Numbered from the stretch's first letter, positions 18,067 through 63,714 are shown. The stretch is DNA of 64,000 nucleotides from a candidate division WOR-3 bacterium (GCA_020343595.1 CP070802.1:228435-292434); one strand, 5' to 3'. The notes: generated by a model from the sequence alone, not told the origin. Numbers and translations are program-made.

Positions 18067-18212
18067 AAAAACCTCCTTCAAGGAGTAAAAATCCAATAAT
18101 CAAGCAACAAATTCCAAATAATATCCAATTCTCAATACCCAAATTCCCAGACATATGGTCAGAATTCTCGAATTTGACATTTGTTTGTTATTTGCAGTTT
18201 GTGATTTGGGAT
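18067..18212. promoter_or_regulatory. AT-rich promoter region of the thiolase gene, carrying a motif shared with 19557..19688
   Basis: Contains CCAAATAATATCCAA and TTTGTGATTTGGGATTTACTCC. The same blocks recur upstream of the 3-hydroxyacyl-CoA dehydrogenase gene. Confidence 0.4.
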
Positions 18213-19556
18213 TTACTCCAAATAGTTATTTATCGGTCCGTAGAGCCAGAAGAAACCGTTCATGAGGACAGCATTGACATCCTCGCCCGAATTGGCCACG
18301 CCTCTACTCACAAGACCTTCTGCAATATCCTTGGTCTTTTTCAAGAAGGCAGTCGCAAGCTGAGCACCGAGCGTATCCATTGCCGTAATCTTTTCAAAAT
18401 GCTGCCTCAACTTCTCTTCCTTGTTGCTGTCCATGAGCAACCCACGCCAGGGCACAAAGCCGTCGGGCAATGGCCCCAATTTCTTGTCCATTCTCTTTCG
18501 CCACTCTTCGGAAATATGAAAATATTCCTTCTTTCTCAAGTCATAAATACCAACCGGGCGGTTCTTCTCGTATTTTAAGAATCCATCCTTCTGCGACCCA
18601 TCGGCATACTGACCACCAAGCACCTTATACTTGGCCATCCTGTCGATCAATTTGCTTCTCAATGAATCATCAGGAAGGTGTGTACGCATGACCTTCAATA
18701 TACACTGAAAAACGTCAATACCGACGTAGTCGATCAACTGGAATATTCCCATCGGTCTAACGAGAAAATCCTGCGTTATCCTGTTGACGGCATAGACCGC
18801 GCCGGGATAACGGAACTTCGCTTTCAGCCTGTCGACTTCAGCAATCCCGTGAAGCCCATCACGGATGAAATGTCCATTACCGATAAACCCTGATATATCA
18901 TTCGCCGGCACCAATTTCTTACGCAGTCGTTTACCGAGTTCGCCCGCAACAGCTTTCAGCTCCTCCGTAGTGTTCTTTGCCGCGATCACTTCCACCAATC
19001 TTTGAACCACAGGTGGATTGTAGAAATGGTAGCCAATGAGCCGTCCGCCAAGCCCGGCACTGTCATCAAGGTATCCGATCGGAATGCTTGACGTATTAGT
19101 GAGATACAGCGTGTCTTTGCTGCACATCCTATTCAATTTCTTGTATATCTTTATCTTTACCTTCTCATTCTCAAATATTGCTTCGAATATCAAGTGGCTC
19201 TTCGCGGCAATACCGAGATCAGTACTGTAATTCAGAACGCTCGTGGAATCATCAACGAACGCATTGATAATATCGCTGTTCTCGACGAGATCCTTTCTGT
19301 GCCTGTACAGTTCCCTGAGCATAACAGTTGACTTTTCGCCAGCCTTCACAAGTTGAGCCTTCATGTAAGCCCTGAGACCATCAAGTGCCTCTTCGCTTAC
19401 ATCCACCAAGTTGAGCCTATAAATATTGCCCTTGTTTTCAGGTACTAACTTCAGTCTGGCCATCTCTTGTGCAATGAGTACTCCAATACCGCTGCCCATC
19501 TTACCGGCCGCACCGATAATCGTTACGTTCTGAAGCCTCTGATCAAGGTCCATCAA
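18213..19556 (-). CDS. 3-hydroxyacyl-CoA dehydrogenase family protein (long form)
   Basis: 447 aa. N-terminal Rossmann motif IIGAAGKMGSGIG, and the 3HCDH N- and C-terminal domains. Confidence 0.8.
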   Translation of the reverse strand: MMDLDQRLQNVTIIGAAGKMGSGIGVLIAQEMARLKLVPENKGNIYRLNLVDVSEEALDGLRAYMKAQLVKAGEKSTVMLRELYRHRKDLVENSDIINAFVDDSTSVLNYSTDLGIAAKSHLIFEAIFENEKVKIKIYKKLNRMCSKDTLYLTNTSSIPIGYLDDSAGLGGRLIGYHFYNPPVVQRLVEVIAAKNTTEELKAVAGELGKRLRKKLVPANDISGFIGNGHFIRDGLHGIAEVDRLKAKFRYPGAVYAVNRITQDFLVRPMGIFQLIDYVGIDVFQCILKVMRTHLPDDSLRSKLIDRMAKYKVLGGQYADGSQKDGFLKYEKNRPVGIYDLRKKEYFHISEEWRKRMDKKLGPLPDGFVPWRGLLMDSNKEEKLRQHFEKITAMDTLGAQLATAFLKKTKDIAEGLVSRGVANSGEDVNAVLMNGFFWLYGPINNYLE

Positions 19557-19688
19557 ACCTCCTTCCTTATCGAAATATCAAATCACAAGAATCAAAAAAC
19601 AAATAATATCCAAATCACAAATTCAATGTTTCTTTTGGATATTAGTTATTGTGGTTTATTTGTAATTTGGGGTTTGCCTTTTGGGATT
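19557..19688. promoter_or_regulatory. AT-rich promoter region of the 3-hydroxyacyl-CoA dehydrogenase gene with an 11 bp inverted repeat
   Basis: Sense strand: TAATATCCAAA-N21-TTTGGATATTA is a perfect inverted repeat. It shares TTGGATATTATTTG and TTTGTGATTTGG blocks with 18067..18212. Confidence 0.4.
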
Positions 19689-20471
19689 TCATTTCTTATC
19701 CCACTTTGGTTTTCGTTTCTCCAAGAACGCCTTCATACCTTCTTTTGCCTCTTCGGTGGAGAACAGTATACTGAATGCTTCGGTCTCGTATGAGTTGGCT
19801 GTTGTCAAATTGGTATCGACTCCCCGGTTAATGACTGTTTTTGAAAAACGCACGGCCGTAGGACCGACCTCCATGATCTTCTTCGCCATGCTCTCTGCTT
19901 CCTGGATGAGCGCCTCGGGTGCTACAACCTTATTCACGAGACCAACGCGAAGAGCCTCCTGGGCATCGATCATCTCTCCCGTGAATATCAACTCTTTAGC
20001 CTTTGCGATGCCAACAAGTCTCGCGAGCCGCTGCGTACCTGCATGCCCCGGGATTAGCCCCAATTTGACCTCGGGCTGACCGAATTTTGCCTTCTCGGAT
20101 GCAATCCTGATGTCGCACGCCATGGCAAGTTCACATCCGGAACCGAGTGCAAAGCCATTAACGGCGGCGATAACAGGCTTCTCCATATTCTCAATGAAAT
20201 TGAGTACACGTTGACCGATCTGACTGTACTCGCGCGCCTTAATAGAATCCATCTTTGCGAGTCGGGATATATCCGAACCAGAGACAAAGGCCTTGCCCTC
20301 CCCCGTAATAATAACGATCAGCACATCATTATCGTCATTGAACATGTGCATGGCCTTTTCCAGTTCGACAATTGCTTCAACATTGACAGCATTGTAGACA
20401 TCAGGTCGGTTTATCTTAGCATAACCAATCTTATCTTTCTTCTCAGCAACAATGAACTCAAACGACATCAA
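19689..20471 (-). CDS. Enoyl-CoA hydratase (crotonase family)
   Basis: 260 aa crotonase fold. Has GEGKAFVSGSDI and AAVNGFALGSGCELAMACD. Confidence 0.8.
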   Translation of the reverse strand: MMSFEFIVAEKKDKIGYAKINRPDVYNAVNVEAIVELEKAMHMFNDDNDVLIVIITGEGKAFVSGSDISRLAKMDSIKAREYSQIGQRVLNFIENMEKPVIAAVNGFALGSGCELAMACDIRIASEKAKFGQPEVKLGLIPGHAGTQRLARLVGIAKAKELIFTGEMIDAQEALRVGLVNKVVAPEALIQEAESMAKKIMEVGPTAVRFSKTVINRGVDTNLTTANSYETEAFSILFSTEEAKEGMKAFLEKRKPKWDKK

Positions 20472-21871: not shown

Positions 21872-21888
21872 TACCCACCGGTTGTTGG

Positions 21889-22218
21889 TTATCTGTCCTC
21901 GCAGCCTGTATGGTCGTTGGTCATTTGTCTGCGGCCCTTAAACTTGTTCCACGCCTGGGCTAGCCTGTAGAGCTGACGTGCAGATATATCATAGGTATTC
22001 AGCAATTCATTGCATAAATCGACTTCAATCCTGTATATATCCTTGACATGCTCGAGACTCACTATCGTCTCGTTACACTCAGCCATCGCATCATCAATGT
22101 ACTTCTGAAATCCAGATCTCTGGTGTTTCTTGGCAAAACCCTCAGCGATCAAGCGCGGTATCGCTTTTGAAGATCTGCTGAGTTGGCTATTCAAATCGTA
22201 GCGCTCCTGGTCGGGCAA
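21889..22218 (-). CDS. Four-helix-bundle protein (the so-called 23S rRNA intervening-sequence protein family)
   Basis: 109 aa. LSRSSKAIPRLIAEGFAKK matches the conserved core of this family. Confidence 0.6.
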   Translation of the reverse strand: MPDQERYDLNSQLSRSSKAIPRLIAEGFAKKHQRSGFQKYIDDAMAECNETIVSLEHVKDIYRIEVDLCNELLNTYDISARQLYRLAQAWNKFKGRRQMTNDHTGCEDR

Positions 22219-22393
22219 TTTCGGGAGTATCTTGGTTGCGACAATTATGATGCTTGGTAGGTCTTCTGGTAAACTTCCAAATCCTTGAAACTCTTAATAC
22301 GCCTCTTGCTATTTTCATTCGTCTTTTTCATATAACAACCACCAAAAACAATACTGGCAGCAACACCAAACAACCATAGACAAAAACTATGAG

Positions 22394-25672: not shown

Positions 25673-25766
25673 ACATCCAAAAATCCAAAATTACTAAATA
25701 CCTAAACCTGATGGGTTTTTAGGTATATAGGAATTTAGGCATTTAGGTATTTGGAAATTCATCGGA
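25673..25766. repeat. Intergenic TTTAGGYA / TRCCTAAA repeat element (family A), copy 1
   Basis: CTAAATACCTAAACC on the left. TTTTTAGGTATATAGGAATTTAGGCATTTAGGTATTTGG on the right, as tandem 8 bp units. Lies upstream of the cupin gene. Confidence 0.6.
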
Positions 25767-27374: not shown

Positions 27375-27516
27375 AAATCACTTAAAGGATCCGGGTTACG
27401 CTGGACGGTTACGAAGCCCGTTTCGTTCGACGGTTACGTCTGCACATCAGTCACAACGTTACCGCGATCCGACAAACGATACGGGCATCGTTGCCTTAAA
27501 CCGTGCAACGTTGCCT
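27375..27516. repeat. GC-rich intergenic repeat element (family B), copy 1
   Basis: Shares ACGAAGCCCGTTtCGT.cGACGG, ACGGTTACG and ACGGGCATCGTTGCC blocks with 33394..33534. Contains small hairpins (AACGAT-ACGGGC-ATCGTT). Lies in the 5' region of the carboxyltransferase gene. Confidence 0.6.
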
Positions 27517-27903
27517 TCATATTAGTATTGCCTTATATCCGTAGCATATGATGCCAGTGTGTCCTTCGGTGTATAGTTTTCGGAAAACAAATTTCACTTT
27601 CTTACCGATCTCGAGTTCGTTCGGTTTGCAATCAACAACCTGTGTCGTGACTCTGACGCCGTTATCAGATTCAACAATGGCCACGCTATAGGGCACTTCC
27701 GTCTCAAAATCCTTTGGAGCAACTCGGATTGTCGTGAAGGTCAGTATCTTTCCATAGTCTGAAACCTTTTCTCCCTTGAAGTCTCGGGATCCGCAATTGC
27801 AGACCATACGCGGCGGAAAAGCAACGCGGCCACAGCCACTGCATTTTGCAGCCTCAAGTCGATATCTCTGAGGCATTTCTCTATGATATCTTGGTGATGG
27901 CAT
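27517..27903 (-). CDS. DUF35 Zn-ribbon / OB-fold protein (partner of archaeal-type thiolase and HMG-CoA synthase)
   Basis: 128 aa. Zn ribbon CSGCGRVAFPPRMVCNCGS followed by an OB fold. It lies directly upstream of the thiolase and HMGCS genes. Confidence 0.75.
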   Translation of the reverse strand: MPSPRYHREMPQRYRLEAAKCSGCGRVAFPPRMVCNCGSRDFKGEKVSDYGKILTFTTIRVAPKDFETEVPYSVAIVESDNGVRVTTQVVDCKPNELEIGKKVKFVFRKLYTEGHTGIICYGYKAILI

Positions 27904-28037
27904 TAAACCTCCTAAACAAAGAATAAATTCCTAAATCCGTCCGAGACGGACCAAAATACCTAAATTCCTAAACCTGCTTTAGGCATTTGTAAAAACGTGA
28001 TGTACTGATTCCTGTATCCACTAACCATTTAGGTATT
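27904..28037. repeat. Family A repeat element, copy 2 (with hairpin core)
   Basis: AAATTCCTAAATCC-GTCCGAGACGGAC-CAAAATACCTAAATTCCTAAACC, then CTTTAGGCATTTG ... CATTTAGGTATTTTAGGCATTTG. Lies upstream of the DUF35 gene. Confidence 0.65.
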
Positions 28038-29186
28038 TTAGGCATTTGTAAATATATGTACTACCGACGAGGCACCTGAACCACCCATATTCTGTGTTAA
28101 ACCGATTTTTGCGTTCTTGACCTGACGTTTTTCAGCCTCGCCGCGCAGTTGTTCAACGACTTCCACAACCTGTGCGACTCCAGTAGCACCGACCGGATGT
28201 CCTTTCGATTTCAGCCCGCCCGATGGATTAACCGGAATTTTGCCAGTCAACGAAGTATGGCCTTGTTCAGTGAACAAACCGCCCTTTCCTTTGTCAACAA
28301 AACCGAGTTCCTCGATAATGCATATCTCTGCGATCGAGAAGCAATCATGTACTTCGGCAAGGTCTATGTCCGACGGTTTGAGACCAGCCATCTTGTATGC
28401 CGCTTCAGCCGATTGTTTGACAGATCCGAGTGTGGTAATATCCTCACGCGCATGGAGAGCAAGCGTATCTGTGGCCGCGCCAGTGCCAATCACTTTCACG
28501 GCGGGCTTATTCACTTTCTTAGCGATGTCCATCGATGCCAGAAGCACACACGCCGCACCGTCTGAAACAGGAGAACTGTCGAGTACGGTAAGCGGGTCTG
28601 CCACCATCGTTGCCTTGATGACTTGGTCTACCGTAACTTCACCCCTGAACTGTGCGTTCGGATTGAGCGCACCGTTGTGGTGATTTTTTACCGAGACCAT
28701 AGCAAGCTGCTGCCTCGTTGTACCATATTTATGCATATGTGCCCTGGCGATCATTGCATACAAACCCGGGAACGTTACACCGTGGTAAACTTCATATTCT
28801 TGGTCAGCGGCTGTAGCCAGCGCGTATGTGACATCTGCACCATCGGTCATTTTTTCCACACCGCCAACCAGTACTACATCACTATGACCGGAAGCCACCT
28901 CAAATAGACCAAGGCGGAATGCCATGCCGCCCGAGCAGCAAGCTGATTCAACTCTCACCGCAGGTATTTGAGGTGTTCCGAGATAATCTGCCATCAATGC
29001 CCCGACGTGTTCCTGCCCCACGAAGAGACCAGGAGTCATAGAACCAACATACATCGATGAAATACGGTCAACACCTGCATCATCGATAGCTTTCAGCGCC
29101 GCTTCTACGAAAATATCTCTTAGAGACTTTTTCCATAGTTCACCGAATTTCGTCATACCACAACCAATTACCGCAACCTCACGCAT
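28038..29186 (-). CDS. Acetyl-CoA C-acetyltransferase (thiolase, archaeal type)
   Basis: 382 aa. N-terminus [13 protein letters not shown], and C-terminal GHPVGATG and HDCFS motifs. Confidence 0.85.
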
Positions 29187-29220
29187 ATCTTACCCCCTTT
29201 GAACACTGAATTCAGTGTAA

Positions 29221-30267
29221 TCAGTCATTCATTATGATCTTACCACGGAATTTGGCATAATGACCGTAGTCCAAGTAGATACGATTCGTTTCCAGCATAT
29301 CTCTCACCTTGTCAGCTTTGTCCCGTACTTCATCTATTCTTTCAGTAACCTTGAAAATAAACGCATCACTACCGGCACCAGAACCGAATGACACAAGAAG
29401 GATCATGTCGCCTTTCTTTGCAATATCGAGCGTTGCCGAAAAGCCTGTTGGTGAAGAACCTGAATATGTATTACCCATGAGTGGGACTACCCAACCCGGT
29501 TCGAGTTGTTCCCGCTTGAAACCAAGTTTCTTGCCGACGGTCAAAGGGAATTTTCCATTTGGCATGTGAAAGACGGCGTAATTGAAATCAGAGGCTTTTA
29601 ATCCGCTCTTCTTTAGGATCCCTTCACCCGCACCCAATATATGCTTGAAATATGCAGGCTGTCCAGTGAATCGTCCACCGTGCAAGGGATAGAAAGCTCC
29701 CTCGCGGCGCCAGAAATCAGGCGTATCGGTCGTATAAGAGTAAGTGTGCAGCAGTTCAGCAACGATCTTGTCTTTACCGAATATGAAGGCTGACCCGCCT
29801 GCGGATGCGCTGAACTCAAGAGCATCGCCCGGGGCGCCTTGCGATGTATCAGCACCAATCGCCAGTGCATACTTCATCTGATCTGCGCTGACAAGGCTGA
29901 AGGCTACGAACATAGCCTCGGTACCTGCCTTGCAGGCAAATTCATAGTCAGCAATATGCACCTCCGGTACAACACCAAGGGCTTCGGCGACGACCGTACC
30001 GGACGGCTTCACTGCGTATGGATGAGACTCCGAACCAATATATACTGCGCCGATATCCGCTGGATCGATCTCAGCCCGACGCAGTGCATTTCTGGCAGCC
30101 TCTACCGATATCGTGATCGTATCTTCGTCAAGAGCCGGGACTGTTTTCTCCTTCAGCAATAGACCTCTGCGTACTGCTTCTGCATCACGACCCCATTGCT
30201 TGGCGATCTCATCAACCTTTATTCTGTACCTTGGCAGGTAAGAACCATATCCAACAATACCAACCAT
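29221..30267 (-). CDS. Hydroxymethylglutaryl-CoA synthase (archaeal type)
   Basis: About 348 aa. Starts [22 protein letters not shown], which matches the archaeal HMGCS N-terminus. ATG at 30267 with a GGAAGGAGG RBS. The track ORF extends to a TTG at 30303. Confidence 0.8.
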
Positions 30268-30371
30268 CAAACCTCCTTCCAAAGACAAAGACCTAAATTC
30301 CAAAAGTCCTAAACACCTAAACGAAGCGACTACAGTCTTTTAGGCATTTAGGCATCTAGGTATTTAGGCAT
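30268..30371. repeat. Family A repeat element, copy 3
   Basis: GACCTAAATTCCAAAAGTCCTAAACACCTAAACG ... TTTTAGGCATTTAGGCATCTAGGTATTTAGGCATTT. Lies upstream of the HMG-CoA synthase gene. Confidence 0.6.
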
Positions 30372-31778
30372 TTATGTTTTCTCAAGTGCTTGTTCCAGAT
30401 CGGCTATCATGTCGTCTGGATGTTCGGCGCCTATACATAGTCTTATCAAATCTGCAGGAATACTTGCCATAGAACGGAGATCCTCACCCATCTGCTGATG
30501 GGTAGAGATCGAGGGGATCGTGGCCACCGACTTGATCCTCCCCAAATCGGTCGCGCGCCAGATACGCTTCAGATGATCGAAGAAAGCACGCGCCGCCGAA
30601 ATACCGCCTTTTAGTTGAAATGACATCAAATGACCGTATCTGTTCACCGGTTTCTTGTACTGGTCGTCGTATTCCGCGTCAACGAGCCAAAGGTACTTGG
30701 CCGCAACGTTGTGAAGGGAATGATTTCTTAAACCCAAATAATTGACGGCCGAAACCTTCGAATGCCCTTCAAGGAACTCCGCGACTTTCATTGAATTCTG
30801 ACTCAGAATATCCATTTTCGAACGCAAGGTCCGAATATCATTGAGGGTAAGAATCGCCTGCATCGGGGACAAACACCAACCGACATCCCTGTTCGGCAGC
30901 AGTTTGATGTATGTAGCAAAGTCCTCTCTCAGCTCATCATTGTCGATATTAGTAACGATATGCTTGCGCGCAATCACAGCTCCCGCAATACAGAAACCAC
31001 TTGCAGTCAGCGTTTTGGTAACGGAATGTACAACTATATCGGCGCCCAATGAAATCGGACGTAGTAGTGCCGGCGTGGCGATAGTCGTATCGAATATTGC
31101 GGGAATCCCGTGTTCATGTGCGAGGTCAATTACTTTTTTTAGGTCGAAGAACGATAAACCAGGATTTGAAGGCAGCTCTCCGAAAAGAAAGCGCGTATCA
31201 CTATCAATCTTGGACGCCCACTCATCAATGTTGTTGGGTTCAACAACCCAGCGGCATTCGATCCCACGATCCTGCATCTTACGGATATTGAACTGCTGGA
31301 ACGTACCTCCGTATATTTGGGCGTTAGAAACAAAATTGATGGGCTCGGTCGATTTCTTAGTGCTCTTGACGAGAAAAGGATCAGTGGCGCTCGCTATTGC
31401 GGCCATACCTGATGATGCCGCGCAGCATCCGGTCTCACCATCAAAGCCGTACCCCTCGAGCAAAGCCAGAGTAGCTTCGAGATAACCCATGGACGGGTTA
31501 TGAATTCTGCTGTATGTCCACGATGGTATAAGATAAGCCAGTGCCGCTTCCATCTCATCGCTATCACGGAAGGCCTGAGATGAACTCATATATACTGGCT
31601 CGATGATAGAACCCTGGTTATTCTCTATTGCCTCCTGCACAGAGTACGCGCCATGCACCGCTATTGTATCGAATTTCCATTTCTTCACTTCCTCGTCGAT
31701 GTACCGGCGGTGCGCGGCAAGAGCCTTCTTGGCATTGTCTACGTATTTCTGTACGCCCTCATTCATATTATCCTCCAT
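30372..31778 (-). CDS. Cys/Met-metabolism PLP-dependent enzyme (O-acetylhomoserine sulfhydrylase-like)
   Basis: 468 aa. Fold-type I transsulfuration family. PLP-Lys motif SVTKTL. Confidence 0.7.
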   Translation of the reverse strand: MEDNMNEGVQKYVDNAKKALAAHRRYIDEEVKKWKFDTIAVHGAYSVQEAIENNQGSIIEPVYMSSSQAFRDSDEMEAALAYLIPSWTYSRIHNPSMGYLEATLALLEGYGFDGETGCCAASSGMAAIASATDPFLVKSTKKSTEPINFVSNAQIYGGTFQQFNIRKMQDRGIECRWVVEPNNIDEWASKIDSDTRFLFGELPSNPGLSFFDLKKVIDLAHEHGIPAIFDTTIATPALLRPISLGADIVVHSVTKTLTASGFCIAGAVIARKHIVTNIDNDELREDFATYIKLLPNRDVGWCLSPMQAILTLNDIRTLRSKMDILSQNSMKVAEFLEGHSKVSAVNYLGLRNHSLHNVAAKYLWLVDAEYDDQYKKPVNRYGHLMSFQLKGGISAARAFFDHLKRIWRATDLGRIKSVATIPSISTHQQMGEDLRSMASIPADLIRLCIGAEHPDDMIADLEQALEKT

Positions 31779-31813
31779 AATGAGTCAAAACTACCGATTT
31801 CATCACGCAGTTT

Positions 31814-32983
31814 CTATATTTTTCTCAAGGCCAGGTCCAGATCATCGATGATATCATCCGGGTGTTCAAGACCAACGGACAGGCGTACGAATCCTGGCTT
31901 GATACCGCTTTCAAGAAGTTCACTTTCGCTGTAACCGGAATGAGTCATTGATCCAGGATGCTCGATAAGAGTATCGACGTCGCCGAGACTGACCGCGAGA
32001 GTACATAATTTGACCGAATTCATGATCGCCTTGCCGGCCTCCTTACCACCTTTAACATCAAAGCCGACCATTCCCCCAAAACCATTCATCTGTCGGCAAG
32101 CAACCTCATACCCGGGGTGTGATTCCAGCCCTGGATAATAGACGTGCTCGACCCTGTCGTGCTTCGTTAGAAATTCAACGATCTTCTGGGCATTTGAACA
32201 ATGCCTATCCATGCGGACAGCAAGGGTTTTCAATCCCCGCAGTATCAACCAGGCATTGAACGGAGATAGGGAAGCGCCTATGTCCTTTGCTCTCTTCCAC
32301 ATGTTCTTGACGAAATCCTGTGTACCAACGACAACACCGCCAATGATATCACCATGACCGCCAAAGTATTTCGTCGCGGAATGGACAACGATATCGGCAC
32401 CCAATCCGATCGGTCGTTGAAGGTACGGGGTGGCAAAAGTATTATCGACACAGAGCGGTATCCCTTTGCTGTGTGCCGAATCCACACATCGAGCGATGTC
32501 AATGATCTTCAGCGTCGGATTGGCTGGAGTCTCAATGAACAAGAGTTTCGTTTGTTCATTGACCGCTGCTTCCACCTGATCGATATCAGTTGCATCAACG
32601 AATGTTACCTTGATGCCAAGATCCGGCAACACGTTTTTAAAAAGTGTGTATGTACCGCCATAAATGGTATCGTCTGACACAACATTCTCTCCCGATTTCA
32701 CGGTCGATACCACAACATTGAATATCGCCGCGAGCCCGGATGCGAAAACCGAACCTGCCTGCGCCGATTCTAGAAGAGCGATCTTCGAGGCAAGAAGTTC
32801 GATCGTTGGGTTGCTGATCCGCGTGTAGATATGTCCGGGTTCCTCTCCTTTGAATAACCGCGCACCGTGGTCGGCATCACGGAAGACAAAAGTAGACGTT
32901 TGGTAAATCGGTGGCGATAATGCCCCCGTATGTTTGTCAGGATGCTGCCCGCCGTGGACAACATCTGTTTCGATATGCATCAC
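31814..32983 (-). CDS. Methionine gamma-lyase / cystathionine gamma-synthase family PLP enzyme
   Basis: 389 aa. Has ETDVVHGG, YTRISNPT, and the PLP-Lys motif SATKYFGGHGD. Confidence 0.8.
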   Translation of the reverse strand: MMHIETDVVHGGQHPDKHTGALSPPIYQTSTFVFRDADHGARLFKGEEPGHIYTRISNPTIELLASKIALLESAQAGSVFASGLAAIFNVVVSTVKSGENVVSDDTIYGGTYTLFKNVLPDLGIKVTFVDATDIDQVEAAVNEQTKLLFIETPANPTLKIIDIARCVDSAHSKGIPLCVDNTFATPYLQRPIGLGADIVVHSATKYFGGHGDIIGGVVVGTQDFVKNMWKRAKDIGASLSPFNAWLILRGLKTLAVRMDRHCSNAQKIVEFLTKHDRVEHVYYPGLESHPGYEVACRQMNGFGGMVGFDVKGGKEAGKAIMNSVKLCTLAVSLGDVDTLIEHPGSMTHSGYSESELLESGIKPGFVRLSVGLEHPDDIIDDLDLALRKI

Positions 32984-32988
32984 ACCTC

Positions 32989-33393
32989 CTAATCTCTCTC
33001 TTCCCGCTGGCTTAATTCAATCAGAACACCACCGGTTGAACGAGGATGAACGAACGCGATTTTTGCAGCGTGCGCGCCCTTACGCGGAATTTCATCGATC
33101 AATATAGCTCCTCTATTCTTAAGATCTTCCATCGATTTTTTGATATCTTCGACTTCAAAACTTAGATGATGCAACCCCTCTCCCCGCTTCTCAATGAATT
33201 TGTGGATCGTGCTGTCTTCACTCGTCGGTTCGAGGAGCTCAACGGTCACCCCTCCGACATCCAGCATTGCCACTCTCACCTTCTGCTCAGGTGTCTCTGA
33301 GATCATTTTCAAACTGAAACCGAGAAGATCACGCCAGATTCTGAGCTGATTCTCGATATCCTTAACAGCAATGCCTATATGTTCGAGTTTCAT
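32989..33393 (-). CDS. mce: Methylmalonyl-CoA epimerase (VOC/glyoxalase family)
   Basis: 134 aa. MKLEHIGIAVKDIE...GEGLHHLSFEV, typical of Mce. Confidence 0.75.
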   Translation of the reverse strand: MKLEHIGIAVKDIENQLRIWRDLLGFSLKMISETPEQKVRVAMLDVGGVTVELLEPTSEDSTIHKFIEKRGEGLHHLSFEVEDIKKSMEDLKNRGAILIDEIPRKGAHAAKIAFVHPRSTGGVLIELSQREERD

Positions 33394-33534
33394 ACTATAA
33401 AGATCGGAAAACGGTTCTCGGATACGAAGCCCGTTACGTCGGACGGAAGACGGTAACGTTTGTCCGGACGGTTGCCGTAACCTTTTGAGCCGAAACGGGC
33501 ATCGTCACCCATAACCTGTGATTCCTGTCTGCTC
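33394..33534. repeat. GC-rich intergenic repeat element (family B), copy 2
   Basis: ACGAAGCCCGTTACGTCGGACGG, GACGGTAACGTTTGTCCGGACGGTTGCCGTAACC and GAAACGGGCATCGT are collinear with copy 1. Lies in the 5' region of mce. Confidence 0.6.
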
Positions 33535-62261: not shown

Positions 62262-62405
62262 AACAACCTCCTTCCTAAAATCAAATTCCTAAATCCGCCT
62301 GATGCGGCCAAAATACCTAAACTACCTAAACATGTAAGCAGCCACCATAAATGTCTCAACAACTTACCGCCCTTTAGGTATTTAGGATTTTTGGTATTTA
62401 GTTAT
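62262..62405. repeat. Family A repeat element, copy 4 (with hairpin core)
   Basis: AAATTCCTAAATCC-GCCTGATGCGGC-CAAAATACCTAAACTACCTAAAC ... CTTTAGGTATTTAGGATTTTTGGTATTTAG. About 60 nt are collinear with copy 2. Lies upstream of etfB. Confidence 0.65.
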
Positions 62406-63551
62406 TTATCTCGTAAGTTCTCTCGCGATAACGATCTTCTGGACTTCAGATGTACCCTCATATAACTCCAGGATCTTGGCGTCGCGGTACAGTCTTTCCA
62501 CTGCGTAGTCCTTTGAATATCCATAGCCGCCGTGTATTTGAACCGCCTTCCTGACCACATCAACGGCAATATCAGACGCATAGTATTTTGACATCGCCGA
62601 TTCCTTGGAGAACCTCTTCATACCTTTGTCTTTGCAGTAACCTGCATAATGGACTAAGAGACGTGCCGCCTGGATCTGAGTTGCCATTTCAGCCAGCATT
62701 GACTGGATCATTTCGAAGTTACATATCGGTTGTCCGAATGCTTTACGCTCCTTCGAATACTTCACTGCTTCATCCAGAGCAGCCTGAGCAATACCGACTG
62801 CCTGCGCGCCTATATCGATACGCGAAACATCGAGTGTGTTCATACATATCTTGAAACCATCGCCTTCATTAGCAAGGAGATTCTCTTTCGGTACTTTGAC
62901 ATCCTCGAAGATCAATTCGCAATTTGCCGTCGCCCTAATGCCCATCAGGTCTTCATGATTCCCGAGACTGAAGCCGGGTGTGTCGCGCTCGACCACAAAG
63001 GCGCTGATCCCCTTGTGTTTCAGTTCCCTGTTGGTATAGGCAAATACAACAAATGTCCCGGCCTCACCGCCGTTGGTGATGAAACGTTTTGTCCCGTTAA
63101 GGATGTAGTGGTCGCCTTCCAACCTTGCCGTCGATTCCATGGCGGCGACATCCGACCCCGCATTAGGTTCGGTAAGACCAAACGCACCGACTCTTTCACC
63201 ACTGCACAATGGCGGTAGATACTTCTTTTTCTGTTCTTCGTTACCGAACTGTGCTATCGGATATGTAGTCAACGAATTGTTCACGGCAACAATCACGCCG
63301 GTCGAGGCACAAGCACGGGAAATCTCCTCGATTGCGATAGCCAGTGACACAAAATCGAATCCGGAACCGCCGTATTGCTCTGGGACAATCACACCGAGTA
63401 AACCCAACTGCGCCATCTTTTTTATAGTAGCCCACGGGAACTCCCTGGATTTATCAATTTCCGGTGCCAGCGGTGCCAATTCACTCTGCGCGAACTTGCG
63501 TACTTCTTCCTGAAGCATCTTCTGATCATTGGTTAAATCAAAATTCATCAA
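62406..63551 (-). CDS. Acyl-CoA dehydrogenase (butyryl-CoA dehydrogenase-like)
   Basis: 381 aa. ACAD N-, middle and C-domains. C-terminal YEGTSEVQKIVIAR, and catalytic Glu region. Confidence 0.85.
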   Translation of the reverse strand: MMNFDLTNDQKMLQEEVRKFAQSELAPLAPEIDKSREFPWATIKKMAQLGLLGVIVPEQYGGSGFDFVSLAIAIEEISRACASTGVIVAVNNSLTTYPIAQFGNEEQKKKYLPPLCSGERVGAFGLTEPNAGSDVAAMESTARLEGDHYILNGTKRFITNGGEAGTFVVFAYTNRELKHKGISAFVVERDTPGFSLGNHEDLMGIRATANCELIFEDVKVPKENLLANEGDGFKICMNTLDVSRIDIGAQAVGIAQAALDEAVKYSKERKAFGQPICNFEMIQSMLAEMATQIQAARLLVHYAGYCKDKGMKRFSKESAMSKYYASDIAVDVVRKAVQIHGGYGYSKDYAVERLYRDAKILELYEGTSEVQKIVIARELTR

Positions 63552-63689
63552 ACCTCCTTAATCGTTGAAATCTCAAAATCCAAAATTCAAATCTCAGATG
63601 ATGGACATATCTCAAAACCCAAACGCTTTTTGTCCATCGTGATTGGTTTGATTGGTAATTTCTTGTTATTTGGACCTTTGTGATTTGAT

Positions 63690-63714
63690 ATTTAGGCAAG
63701 TCACTTGCCTAAAA
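63690..63714. repeat. Perfect palindrome built from two family A units (TTTAGGCAAGT-c-ACTTGCCTAAA)
   Basis: 11+1+11 nt perfect inverted repeat overlapping the stop codon of the partial ACAD gene. Lies upstream of bcd. Confidence 0.55.

Follow-up and report, generated by a model that had tools for sequence, protein, structure and literature searches.

The related repeats at 27375-27516 and 33394-33534 of the window (the whole 64,000-nucleotide stretch of WOR-3 DNA analysed) are ORF-less members of a widespread intergenic family of imperfect palindromes, and probably relics of cassettes that resemble the intervening sequences (IVSs) of 23S rRNA and carry a PF05635 gene. PF05635 (also TIGR02436) is the family of the 23S rRNA intervening-sequence protein, "S23p", and includes the ORFs of 23S rRNA IVSs. 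As the complete copies carry a small gene of the rRNA-IVS kind, the two repeats are best read as a selfish-element relic rather than a riboswitch of carboxylase genes.

Two elements in the spacers of one operon

The two regions coincide exactly with minus-strand inter-ORF spacers of a WOR-3 operon. Copy A occupies the DUF35/ChsH2-OB to carboxyltransferase spacer, and copy B the acetyl-CoA hydrolase/transferase to mce spacer, in each case between minus-strand ORFs. The neighbouring genes belong to housekeeping acyl-CoA metabolism; the window carries an HMG-CoA synthase / thiolase / DUF35 trio, which might suggest archaeal DNA, but the window is WOR-3. The elements of the window considered here are as follows:

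27384..27515, minus strand: copy A, ORF-less type-1 hairpin element (envelope from the family profile)
27491-27481 and 27421-27411, minus strand: 5' core ACGATGCCCGT and 3' core ACGGGCTTCGT of copy A
33397..33520, minus strand: copy B, ORF-less type-1 hairpin element (envelope from the family profile)
33505-33495 and 33434-33424, minus strand: 5' core and 3' core of copy B
21872..22393, minus strand: ORF-bearing type-1 cassette with a frameshifted PF05635 (S23p / four-helix-bundle) gene (jackhmmer and Pfam)
22331, 22247-22245 and 22218-21889, minus strand: ATG, premature TAA and remaining frame of the gene in this cassette

Every sequence block that a preliminary description had reported as shared by the two regions was found in its place, and the AACGAT-ACGGGC-ATCGTT mini-hairpin is present in copy A. 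The repeat had been put at about 110 nt, which was too short; the profile envelopes give about 125-130 nt, and each copy is one imperfect palindrome of this size. On the operon strand, both copies read ACGATGCCCGT-(59/60 nt)-ACGGGCTTCGT. On the plus strand, ACGAAGCCCGTTTCGT lies at 27411-27426 (copy A) and ACGAAGCCCGTTACGT at 33424-33439 (copy B), with ACGGGCATCGT at 27481-27491 and 33495-33505, respectively. The two 11-mers of each copy are mutual inverted repeats (10 of 11 pairs), a relationship absent from the preliminary description. The copies are collinear in alignment, with a mean column identity of 73%. When up to one mismatch was allowed, ACGGGCWTCGT occurred seven times in comparison with 1.9 expected, and the four exact matches constitute copies A and B. 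A search of the window with a profile of 114 family members returned exactly two matches, copies A and B, and their membership of the family was thereby observed directly. The minimum free energy of the predicted RNA fold was -55.5 kcal/mol for copy A (z -3.66) and -45.6 kcal/mol for copy B (z -1.85). Neither copy contains an ORF.

Each copy immediately precedes a gene of the same pathway in the sense orientation and is predicted to fold stably, and copy A is conserved among close relatives, as might be expected of a gene-specific cis-regulatory RNA (a riboswitch-like leader) or of a small RNA gene serving acyl-CoA carboxylation. However, the carboxylation pathway common to the two downstream genes, which had been remarked upon in the preliminary description, is a coincidence of one operon, in which all five spacers longer than 60 nt bear a hairpin element. 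No sigma-70-like promoter or intrinsic terminator was identified on the operon strand of either spacer, on the basis of a sigma-70 consensus that may not be that of WOR-3, and the small RNA gene is thus unsupported. Comparison with RNA family models in Rfam, at gathering thresholds and at E ≤ 10, gave nothing relevant, the only matches in the window being two tRNAs. In relatives, these sites hold hairpins of other types or are empty.

Spread, context and structure of the short elements

Exact matches to the element pattern were found at no fewer than 119 places in species-representative genomes, and 116 of these match the family consensus well beyond the pattern. The exact pattern (at least 116 places) is present in Omnitrophota, Desulfobacterota, Nitrospirota, Planctomycetota, CPR, WOR-3 and Bacteroidota. 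The similarity of copies A and B, for which a chance GC-rich match had been considered, is therefore real, since there are at least 116 homologous copies elsewhere. The search for further copies in other genomes thus returned a multi-copy family in several phyla, and of the options originally offered, the short dispersed repeat was the correct one.

Among the matches listed, the short copies are always intergenic, typically at 20-60 nt from the flanking ORFs. There are often several copies per genome, with extra, slightly variant copies in the same loci. In co-directional spacers, 30 of the matches listed are sense vs 48 antisense; a further 14 lie in convergent and nine in divergent spacers. 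Clustering of the neighbours within 8-kb flanks gave no recurring protein family (the largest cluster covers 11 of the 119 loci listed), and no transposase family recurs near the elements among the matches listed. No carboxyltransferase adjoins any other copy among these matches, and the test for a carboxylase/epimerase link found one mce and one MCM homologue among 815 ORFs, that is, no association. No members were seen within rRNA genes, all copies being located between protein-coding ORFs. Viral contigs contained one short copy and no long copies; phages are therefore not the vector.

In the type-1 arms, the core ACGAWGCCCGTWTCG ... CGAWACGGGCWTCGT is surrounded by GGTTAC-like units, each about 6 nt long, and the family arms read GGTTACGGT / ACCGTAACC. 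The two core blocks are inverted, each able to form its own mini-hairpin of 4-6 bp, and the spacing of ~60 nt between them is filled with periodic units. The conserved arms could pair over at least 25 bp. For whole elements, the predicted folds are much more stable than those of shuffles, whichever strand is taken (median z -3.8 and -3.6); the apical part alone folds weakly (median z -1.24).

Compensatory covariation, proposed as a check of the structure, was found in none of 12 consensus pairs, and RNAalifold applied to a MAFFT alignment recovered the invariant core helix only, again without covariation. A register-based test showed no excess of Watson-Crick (WC) pairs over shuffles and deficits at about five positions. 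At these facing positions (T/T or A/A), WC pairing is avoided, with 3-6% WC vs 39-45% in shuffles. On the sense strand, G.U was not significantly favoured over A.C (65 vs 59 in short forms and 53 vs 41 in long forms). The covariation and G.U/A.C tests therefore gave no positive evidence of selection on RNA structure. The riboswitch and small RNA readings fail because the elements match nothing in Rfam, show no compensatory covariation and are not associated with carboxylase genes; there is also no fixed orientation and no recurring neighbour family, and the neighbours at more than 100 other loci are unrelated. A gene-specific role of this kind is accordingly considered extremely improbable. 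Readings as a C/D-box or H/ACA sRNA, an attC site, a CRISPR repeat or a terminator were dropped because their defining motifs are missing from the sequence.

The strict conservation of the core across phyla without covariation, and the construction of the arms from periodic units, would also suit a double-stranded DNA binding array, in which an oligomeric protein, possibly pentameric S23p, would bind the GGTTAC-like units of ~6 bp and the core as it would an operator or a centromere-like site. The co-variation of arm type with protein subfamily, described below, and the absence of a strand-specific RNA signature are in keeping with such an array. However, the facing positions differ systematically between the half-sites, unlike those of a symmetric dimer site, and we know of no DNA binding by PF05635 proteins. 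The strong sense bias of the ORFs further suggests a logic at the level of the transcript, and the array is regarded as decidedly unlikely.

We also considered a non-autonomous REP/REPIN-like or MITE-like transposon, mobilised in trans by a RAYT (Y1) or DDE transposase from another locus, with PF05635 as a passenger. This would explain imperfect palindromes of 110-150 nt that are multi-copy, intergenic and present in both orientations, as well as the mini-hairpins of the core blocks, which are REP-doublet-like. In one Desulfobacteraceae subgroup, near-identical units of ~260 nt with CTAG at both ends were found at different loci of one MAG, which likewise favours a transposon. The transposon is nevertheless very doubtful, given the lack of a recurring transposase family and of a GTAG-type REP signature. 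There were no target-site duplications or sharp termini, the similarity between copies fading gradually 10-30 nt outside the core. In addition, one and the same gene is present in all 29 long forms, where it is built into the arms, and the ORF-bearing form of a MITE would here encode a four-helix-bundle protein, which is no known transposase fold.

ORF-bearing cassettes and turnover at orthologous spacers

An arm-pair scan for long forms, covering a single loop-length class (396-456 nt), gave 29 metagenome matches with the same arms ~430-450 nt apart. All 29 enclose an ORF of the same PF05635 subfamily, about 130 aa in length, and ORF-bearing relatives with the same arms were thus observed directly. 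As only this loop class was scanned, cargo genes beyond PF05635 are possible. The ORF begins with an ATG immediately after the inner 5' arm and ends with a stop codon inside the inner 3' arm, its last codons being part of that arm. In all 23 cases that could be scored, the host gene upstream runs in the same direction as the ORF; the gene downstream does so in 17 of 20. The median dN/dS was 0.09 (43 unsaturated pairs) at a median amino acid identity of 68%; judged from these sequence comparisons, the sense ORFs are under purifying selection. The arm type tracks the PF05635 protein subfamily. The closest solved structure to the long-form protein is 2GSC, the Xanthomonas S23p, which is a homopentameric four-helix bundle (PMC4990558). 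This arrangement was not found described in the literature on PF05635, S23p and GxxExxY with hairpin or intergenic context, and a full-text search with the core 11-mers returned unrelated primers only.

The third element of the window (21872..22393) has degenerate type-1 arms with GGTTGT units (GCTGCCAGTATTG / CATACAGGCTGC), for which the predicted arm duplex is -45.2 kcal/mol vs -32.3 +/- 4.1 in shuffles. Its gene matches Pfam PF05635 (E=9.5e-14) and TIGR02436, and the protein shows 63-76% identity to type-1 proteins.

Turnover was observed directly at orthologous spacers of related WOR-3. The copy-A spacer holds orthologous copies in L122 and L120, and decayed type-1 hairpins in L153 and L154. 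The copy-B spacer is empty in L154 (43 nt), contains a type-1 PF05635 cassette in L121 (520 nt), and contains a PF05635 pseudogene or remnant with other arms in L155 and L153. Remnants that keep an N-terminal ORF fragment, together with frameshifted ORFs, represent decay in place. A BLAST search for ORF remnants within the short forms was confounded by several ORFs whose reading frame continues into the 3' arm. As the relatives' spacers are empty, occupied by full cassettes, or decayed, copies A and B are read as ORF-less IVS-type hairpins in mRNA spacers.

The copy-A spacer is 93% identical to that of L122, in comparison with 73% at 4-fold sites; in another comparison between relatives, copy A and synonymous sites were 62% and 32% identical, respectively. 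A relic in plain decay would not be this well conserved, and either a function or gene conversion between copies is suggested. It is therefore possible that copy A acts locally within the operon transcript, without being specific to a gene.

The conservation of copy A well beyond synonymous sites could also be expected if the short hairpins were independent host or mobile stem-loops into whose apical loops PF05635 genes home, copies A and B being unoccupied targets. In 23S rRNA, IVSs are likewise found at helix tips, namely those of helices 25 and 45. Short forms seem to outnumber long forms, although the two counts come from scans of different collections with different patterns and can be compared only loosely, and at one locus (L104) an ORF lies between two complete short elements. 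The pairing of arm type with protein subfamily could equally result from target specificity. However, the ATG abuts the 5' arm, the stop and last codons of the ORF lie within the 3' arm, and the remnants and frameshifted ORFs indicate in-place decay. An identical core across phyla is also hard to explain for a host element that has no known universal, sequence-specific partner. Homing into pre-existing stem-loops is thus considered rather unlikely.

If copies A and B are, as we favour, ORF-less relics of IVS-like cassettes, the full-length form would be a promoter-less cassette, with two arms bracketing a PF05635 / TIGR02436 gene of ~130 aa. The cassette would lie within transcribed host-operon spacers, its ORF sense to the transcript, and would thereby ride on host transcription. 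ORF loss, rather than ORF gain, would leave a hairpin of about 110-150 nt such as copies A and B, and at least some short forms would then persist or multiply as short forms. In the operon mRNA, the element is predicted to form a stem of at least 25 bp with a single mismatch roughly every 6 bp, which, by analogy with rRNA IVSs, would be a candidate site of RNase III processing or of transcript stability. It would be neither a ligand sensor nor a gene-specific regulator. Movement of the cassette is presumed, with no mechanism attached, because to our knowledge PF05635 proteins have no transposase or recombinase activity, and duplications and sharp ends are lacking. The systematic avoidance of WC pairs at about five facing positions is not accounted for by this model.

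We tentatively raise a wider possibility, to which appreciable but limited weight is given. IVS-type cassettes may be general promoter-less selfish genes of any highly transcribed mRNA or rRNA spacer across phyla, built on PF05635 and perhaps PF13366 PDDEXK_3, with each subfamily recognising its own cognate arms (periodic units, obligatory mismatches). Unexplained intercistronic hairpins, including both repeat families of the window, might then be ORF-less derivatives, some of them constrained.

Comparison with known systems

The 23S rRNA IVSs have been known since 1990, and neither how they arose and move nor what the S23p ORF does has yet been explained (PMC4990558). New here is the S23p gene family in the same stem-and-loop architecture in ordinary operon spacers, always sense, with an arm sequence that can be searched across phyla, and with ORF-less relics at sites whose orthologues in relatives are empty or hold something else. 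Unlike the rRNA cases, these elements provide numerous independent insertions, unoccupied sites and pairings of a protein subfamily with an arm type. They explain much of the intercistronic hairpin content of WOR-3, Omnitrophota, Desulfobacterota and Nitrospirota genomes, and guard against the annotation of a recurring structured, GC-rich intergenic motif as a riboswitch.

Avd of the diversity-generating retroelements belongs to the same superfamily (PF05635, pentameric four-helix bundle); unlike Avd, the subfamily here is distinct, and no reverse transcriptase or TR/VR pair lies beside the cassettes examined. Integron cassettes and attC sites are similar in their promoter-less sense ORFs behind host or platform transcription, and in imperfect palindromes (60-140 nt) in which certain unpaired positions are conserved. 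However, the elements here have no R''/R' GTTRRRY cores (RYYYAAC / GTTRRRY), the window has no integrase-adjoining cassette array, and one hairpin arm flanks each side of the ORF, in place of a complete attC after it.

The ERIC/IRU, REP/BIME/REPIN and Correia elements are likewise imperfect palindromes of ~100-150 nt, transcribed, intergenic, in either orientation, with many copies and no gene-specific association. Each of these is restricted to a single genus or family, and its transposase partner, where there is one, is a RAYT or DDE enzyme. The family here, by contrast, is present in at least seven phyla and is PF05635-linked, with neither a GTAG motif nor a TA duplication in evidence, and no sharp ends to the TIRs.

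IVSs with or without an S23p ORF occur in Coxiella, Leptospira, Xanthomonas and Brucella, and ORF-less rRNA IVSs in Salmonella, Yersinia and Campylobacter. Unlike these, which occupy helix 25 or 45 of 23S rRNA, the elements here are located in protein-coding operon spacers; a genome carries several copies, and an 11-nt core is common across phyla. The Coxiella IVS is a 428-nt selfish element with the S23p ORF in the loop of an inverted-repeat stem; tandem heptamer repeats adjoin the ORF, which is sense to the host transcript, and RNase III cleavage has been performed in vitro (PMC4990558). For the elements here, RNase III excision is a candidate by analogy only. The two groups are alike in the long stem of terminal inverted repeats, in the optional PF05635 loop ORF in the sense of the host transcript with short tandem units beside it, and in having ORF-containing (about 430-500 nt) and ORF-less (about 100-150 nt) forms. 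They also have in common a sporadic distribution and ORFs prone to decay (PMC4990558). The shared protein family and architecture suggest, by analogy, the link between these elements and the IVSs.

Two hairpin copies within an acyl-CoA operon

Every gene between ~25.3 and 37.5 kb of the window lies on the minus strand. The operon encodes, in order, methylmalonyl-CoA mutase, an alanine dehydrogenase-like protein, acetyl-CoA hydrolase/transferase, mce (glyoxalase fold), two Cys/Met PLP enzymes, an HMG-CoA synthase-like protein, thiolase, a DUF35 protein (ChsH2 OB/zinc ribbon) and a carboxyltransferase. The organism belongs to candidate division WOR-3; its carboxyltransferase shares 90% identity with the CP070795 protein and 86% with the CP070664 protein. 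The two regions singled out in the preliminary description coincide exactly with two spacers of this operon, and all of the collinear blocks quoted for them were present:

27375-27516, minus strand: spacer between the DUF35 and carboxyltransferase genes (copy A)
33394-33534, minus strand: spacer between the acetyl-CoA hydrolase and mce genes (copy B)

Read along the operon strand, each spacer has the form ACGATGCCCGT-(59 or 60 nt)-ACGGGCTTCGT. Its two 11-mer cores form an inverted repeat in which 10 of 11 positions pair and one is a U.U mismatch. The copies align collinearly with a mean column identity of 73%, and folding gives a single long, imperfect hairpin for each spacer (copy A, -55.5 kcal/mol, z -3.66; copy B, -45.6 kcal/mol, z -1.85). 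The 11-mer was over-represented in the window (seven matches against 1.9 expected), the four exact matches being those of copies A and B. A family profile search of the 64 kb returned these two copies only (envelopes 27384-27515 and 33397-33520). The repeat pair of the preliminary description is thereby confirmed.

The adjacent HMG-CoA synthase-like, thiolase and DUF35 genes (27517-30303) form a trio typical of archaea, here located inside a bacterial (WOR-3) acyl-CoA operon and kept in all of the relatives examined. The only Rfam gathering-level matches in the window were tRNA-Cys(GCA) and tRNA-Gly(GCC), at 470-543 and 599-670 on the minus strand.

Family distribution and a test for gene-specific regulation

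A search for further copies among species-representative genomes yielded at least 119 stretches with the exact pattern ACGATGCCCGT-N45-75-ACGGGCTTCGT. Three loci (L036, L037 and L048) were set aside as probable chance matches, two of them lying within a long ORF. The remaining 116, among the matches listed, share a consensus reaching far past the pattern: ...cGTnTnnCGGTTACGGTn-ACGATGCCCGT(T/A)TCGT-nTnTCGGTTACGTCnTTCGT-[AT-rich apex]-ACGTnACC...CGA(T/A)ACGGGCTTCGT-nACCGTAACCnTT..CC. The hosts among loci L001-L080 included Omnitrophota (18), Desulfobacterota-type lineages (29), Nitrospirota (11), Planctomycetota/PVC (6), three CPR lineages, WOR-3 and Bacteroidota, with 3-5 copies in several genomes among the matches listed. 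The exact pattern under-counts the family, because extra copies with single-base core variants occur in the same 8-kb loci. Similarity between copies usually fades 10-30 nt beyond the cores, giving an element of ~110-150 nt without sharp ends. Viral contigs, 2.9 million in all, yielded a single family copy.

The preliminary description had offered a riboswitch-like leader, a small RNA gene or a short dispersed repeat. The copies were intergenic in every case and occurred in both orientations in co-directional spacers (30 versus 48), as well as in 14 convergent and 9 divergent spacers. No recurring neighbour protein family was found among 815 ORFs near the elements, and no carboxyltransferase was found beside any copy other than the window's. 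Comparison with RNA family models (Rfam 15) gave no match to the elements even at E<=10, no promoter-like or terminator-like site was seen on the operon strand of either spacer, and covariation analysis of the family found no compensatory changes. The riboswitch reading was therefore rejected, the small RNA reading gained no support from the scan for sigma-70-type promoters and terminators, and the dispersed repeat proved to be the right one.

Several loci contained composite arrangements. A ~260-nt unit with a central type-1 hairpin (the copy A/B form) was present in seven loci of Desulfobacteraceae and related CSMAG MAGs (L003, L016, L031, L051, L059, L078 and L105). The loci are unrelated, three lie within one MAG, and the unit is ~90% conserved between them. 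It starts with CTAGCGAAGC, ends with GACATCTAG and contains a TTGACA...TATATA promoter-like stretch; it may move as a composite unit that targets CTAG. Locus L088 (5058-5530) holds a cluster of six half-sites in 470 nt. The type-1 element of locus L065 (891-1215) has 243 nt between its cores and a different GC-rich palindrome in its loop (GGGGTTGCGTAGCTCGAA ... TTCGAGCTACGCAACC), and looks like a hairpin element nested within another.

PF05635 cassettes and spacer turnover

In the relative CP070664 (L121), a 142-aa gene of Pfam PF05635 (23S_rRNA_IVP) occupies the spacer equivalent to that of copy B. The 28-nt inverted repeats on either side of this gene, GGCAGCCTGTATCGTCATTCG ... CGATACGGGCCGC, are diverged versions of the element's arms. 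A metagenome scan for cores of the family 396-456 nt apart gave 29 loci, against about one expected by chance on a rough estimate. All 29 contained an ORF of ~130 aa from one PF05635/TIGR02436 subfamily, with the ATG directly 3' of the inner 5' arm and the stop codon within the inner 3' arm. Selection on the ORFs is strongly purifying (median dN/dS 0.09; median 68% aa identity). Among solved structures the nearest is 2GSC, the S23p of Xanthomonas, a pentameric four-helix bundle (PMC4990558). In all 23 scorable cases the upstream host gene, usually at 12-110 nt, had the orientation of the ORF, as did the downstream gene in 17 of 20. Given this co-orientation and layout, the ORF-bearing form is a promoter-less cassette riding host operon transcription. 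The window has a cassette of its own:

21872-22393, minus strand: frameshifted type-1 PF05635 gene with degenerate arms

These arms still pair (-45.2 kcal/mol, versus -32.3 +/- 4.1 in shuffles).

Two loci showed further arrangements: L104 (5290-6010) has two complete short elements with a PF05635 ORF between them, and L130 (3450-4050) has an arm-spacer unit directly repeated on either side of the cassette.

Other PF05635 genes in the loci compared were flanked by different arm types, comprising ACGC units (L120), GGTTAATAA units (L080) and ACCTAAAT/ATTTAGGT units (L153), the last being the window's other repeat. The protein subfamily tracks the arm type; identity is 58-76% among type-1 proteins and at most 34% between them and the others. 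Two further hairpin families were present in the window:

25673-25766, 27904-28037 and 30304-30371 (remaining long spacers of the operon), also 62270-62420: second family, 8-nt units, AAATNCCT on one arm and AGGNATTT on the other
18080-18240, 19540-19700 and 63530-63700: third family, periodic arms of CAAATCACAAA / TTTGTGATTTGG type

All five operon spacers longer than 60 nt hold an ORF-less hairpin. The second family corresponds to the first repeat of the preliminary description. At the syntenic locus L153 (8026-8400), a PF05635 gene of a different subfamily lies between second-family arms (ACCTAAATTCCTAAATACCTA / TAGGTATTTAGGCATTTTGGT), and the window's second family probably represents ORF-less relics of a second cassette type. 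The third family lies upstream of AGGAGG-type ribosome-binding sites. In the WOR-3 relative L155 (6485-7105), an inserted 139-aa PDDEXK_3 (PF13366) gene, sense to the operon, separates the HMG-CoA synthase and thiolase genes. Inverted repeats with a periodic build, GACACTGAAAGCACAGAA / TTCAGTGTTTTCAGTGTC, lie on either side of it, so cassettes of this architecture may extend beyond PF05635.

Spacers of copies A and B compared across the syntenic operons of six WOR-3 relatives

Copy B, L154: empty (43 nt)
Copy B, window: ORF-less type-1 hairpin
Copy B, L121: type-1 cassette including the ORF
Copy B, L155: 493 nt, PF05635 pseudogene with TAGTAG-type arms
Copy B, L153: remnant, a single TAGTAG arm and the first ~30 ORF codons
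Copy A, window, L122 (96% relative) and L120 (90%): ORF-less type-1 hairpin
Copy A, L153 and L154: decayed type-1 hairpin
Copy A, L155 and L121: periodic hairpins, unrelated

Other WOR-3 operon spacers contained more PF05635 genes or fragments, all sense (L153 14161-14610, L155 14125-14304, L120 16915-17325). No arms of at least 14 nt were detected around the type-1 gene at L153 14161.

Proposed origin and relation to known elements

Copies A and B are probably leftovers of type-1 S23p cassettes, or their non-autonomous relatives. Transcribed inside the operon mRNA, they could form a stem of at least 25 bp, a candidate RNase III or stability site by analogy with rRNA intervening sequences (IVSs). 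Four results call for caution with this account. The sense strand carried no RNA-specific signature (G.U versus A.C, 65 versus 59 and 53 versus 41), and the apex folds weakly. Facing positions approximately every 6 bp are held as T/T or A/A (Watson-Crick 3-6%, versus 39-45% in shuffles), which could reflect recognition of the mismatches, or a need to keep the palindrome or the dsRNA imperfect. Copy A is conserved far above synonymous sites (93% versus 73% against L122; 62% versus 32% against L120), and is thus either functional at its locus or homogenised by gene conversion. PF05635 is not known to have recombinase activity. In a less probable, reverse derivation, the hairpins would be targets and the PF05635 gene would home into their loops.

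The family of copies A and B is a palindromic-repeat element of IVS type. Both its spread across phyla and its association with S23p cassettes appear undescribed so far; the searchable literature, with its incomplete coverage, held no account of this arm/PF05635 arrangement. ERIC, REP and Correia-type repeats are like the short form in their size, their palindromy and the way they occur in genomes, but their associated genes are different or none. The closest known system is the IVS of 23S rRNA. In Coxiella, the IVS is a selfish element of 428 nt: its inverted repeats pair into a stem cut by RNase III, and the loop carries a decaying S23p ORF, sense to the precursor, with tandem heptamer repeats alongside; IVS origin and mobility are an unresolved question (PMC4990558). 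Unlike the rRNA IVSs, the type-1 family lies in mRNA spacers, which places it outside that class by location, is multi-copy, and has an arm core conserved across phyla. The two share architecture, gene family, sense orientation, short periodic units, and ORF-bearing and ORF-less forms side by side, and the spread and S23p link of the type-1 family open the old question of IVS origin to computation and experiment.
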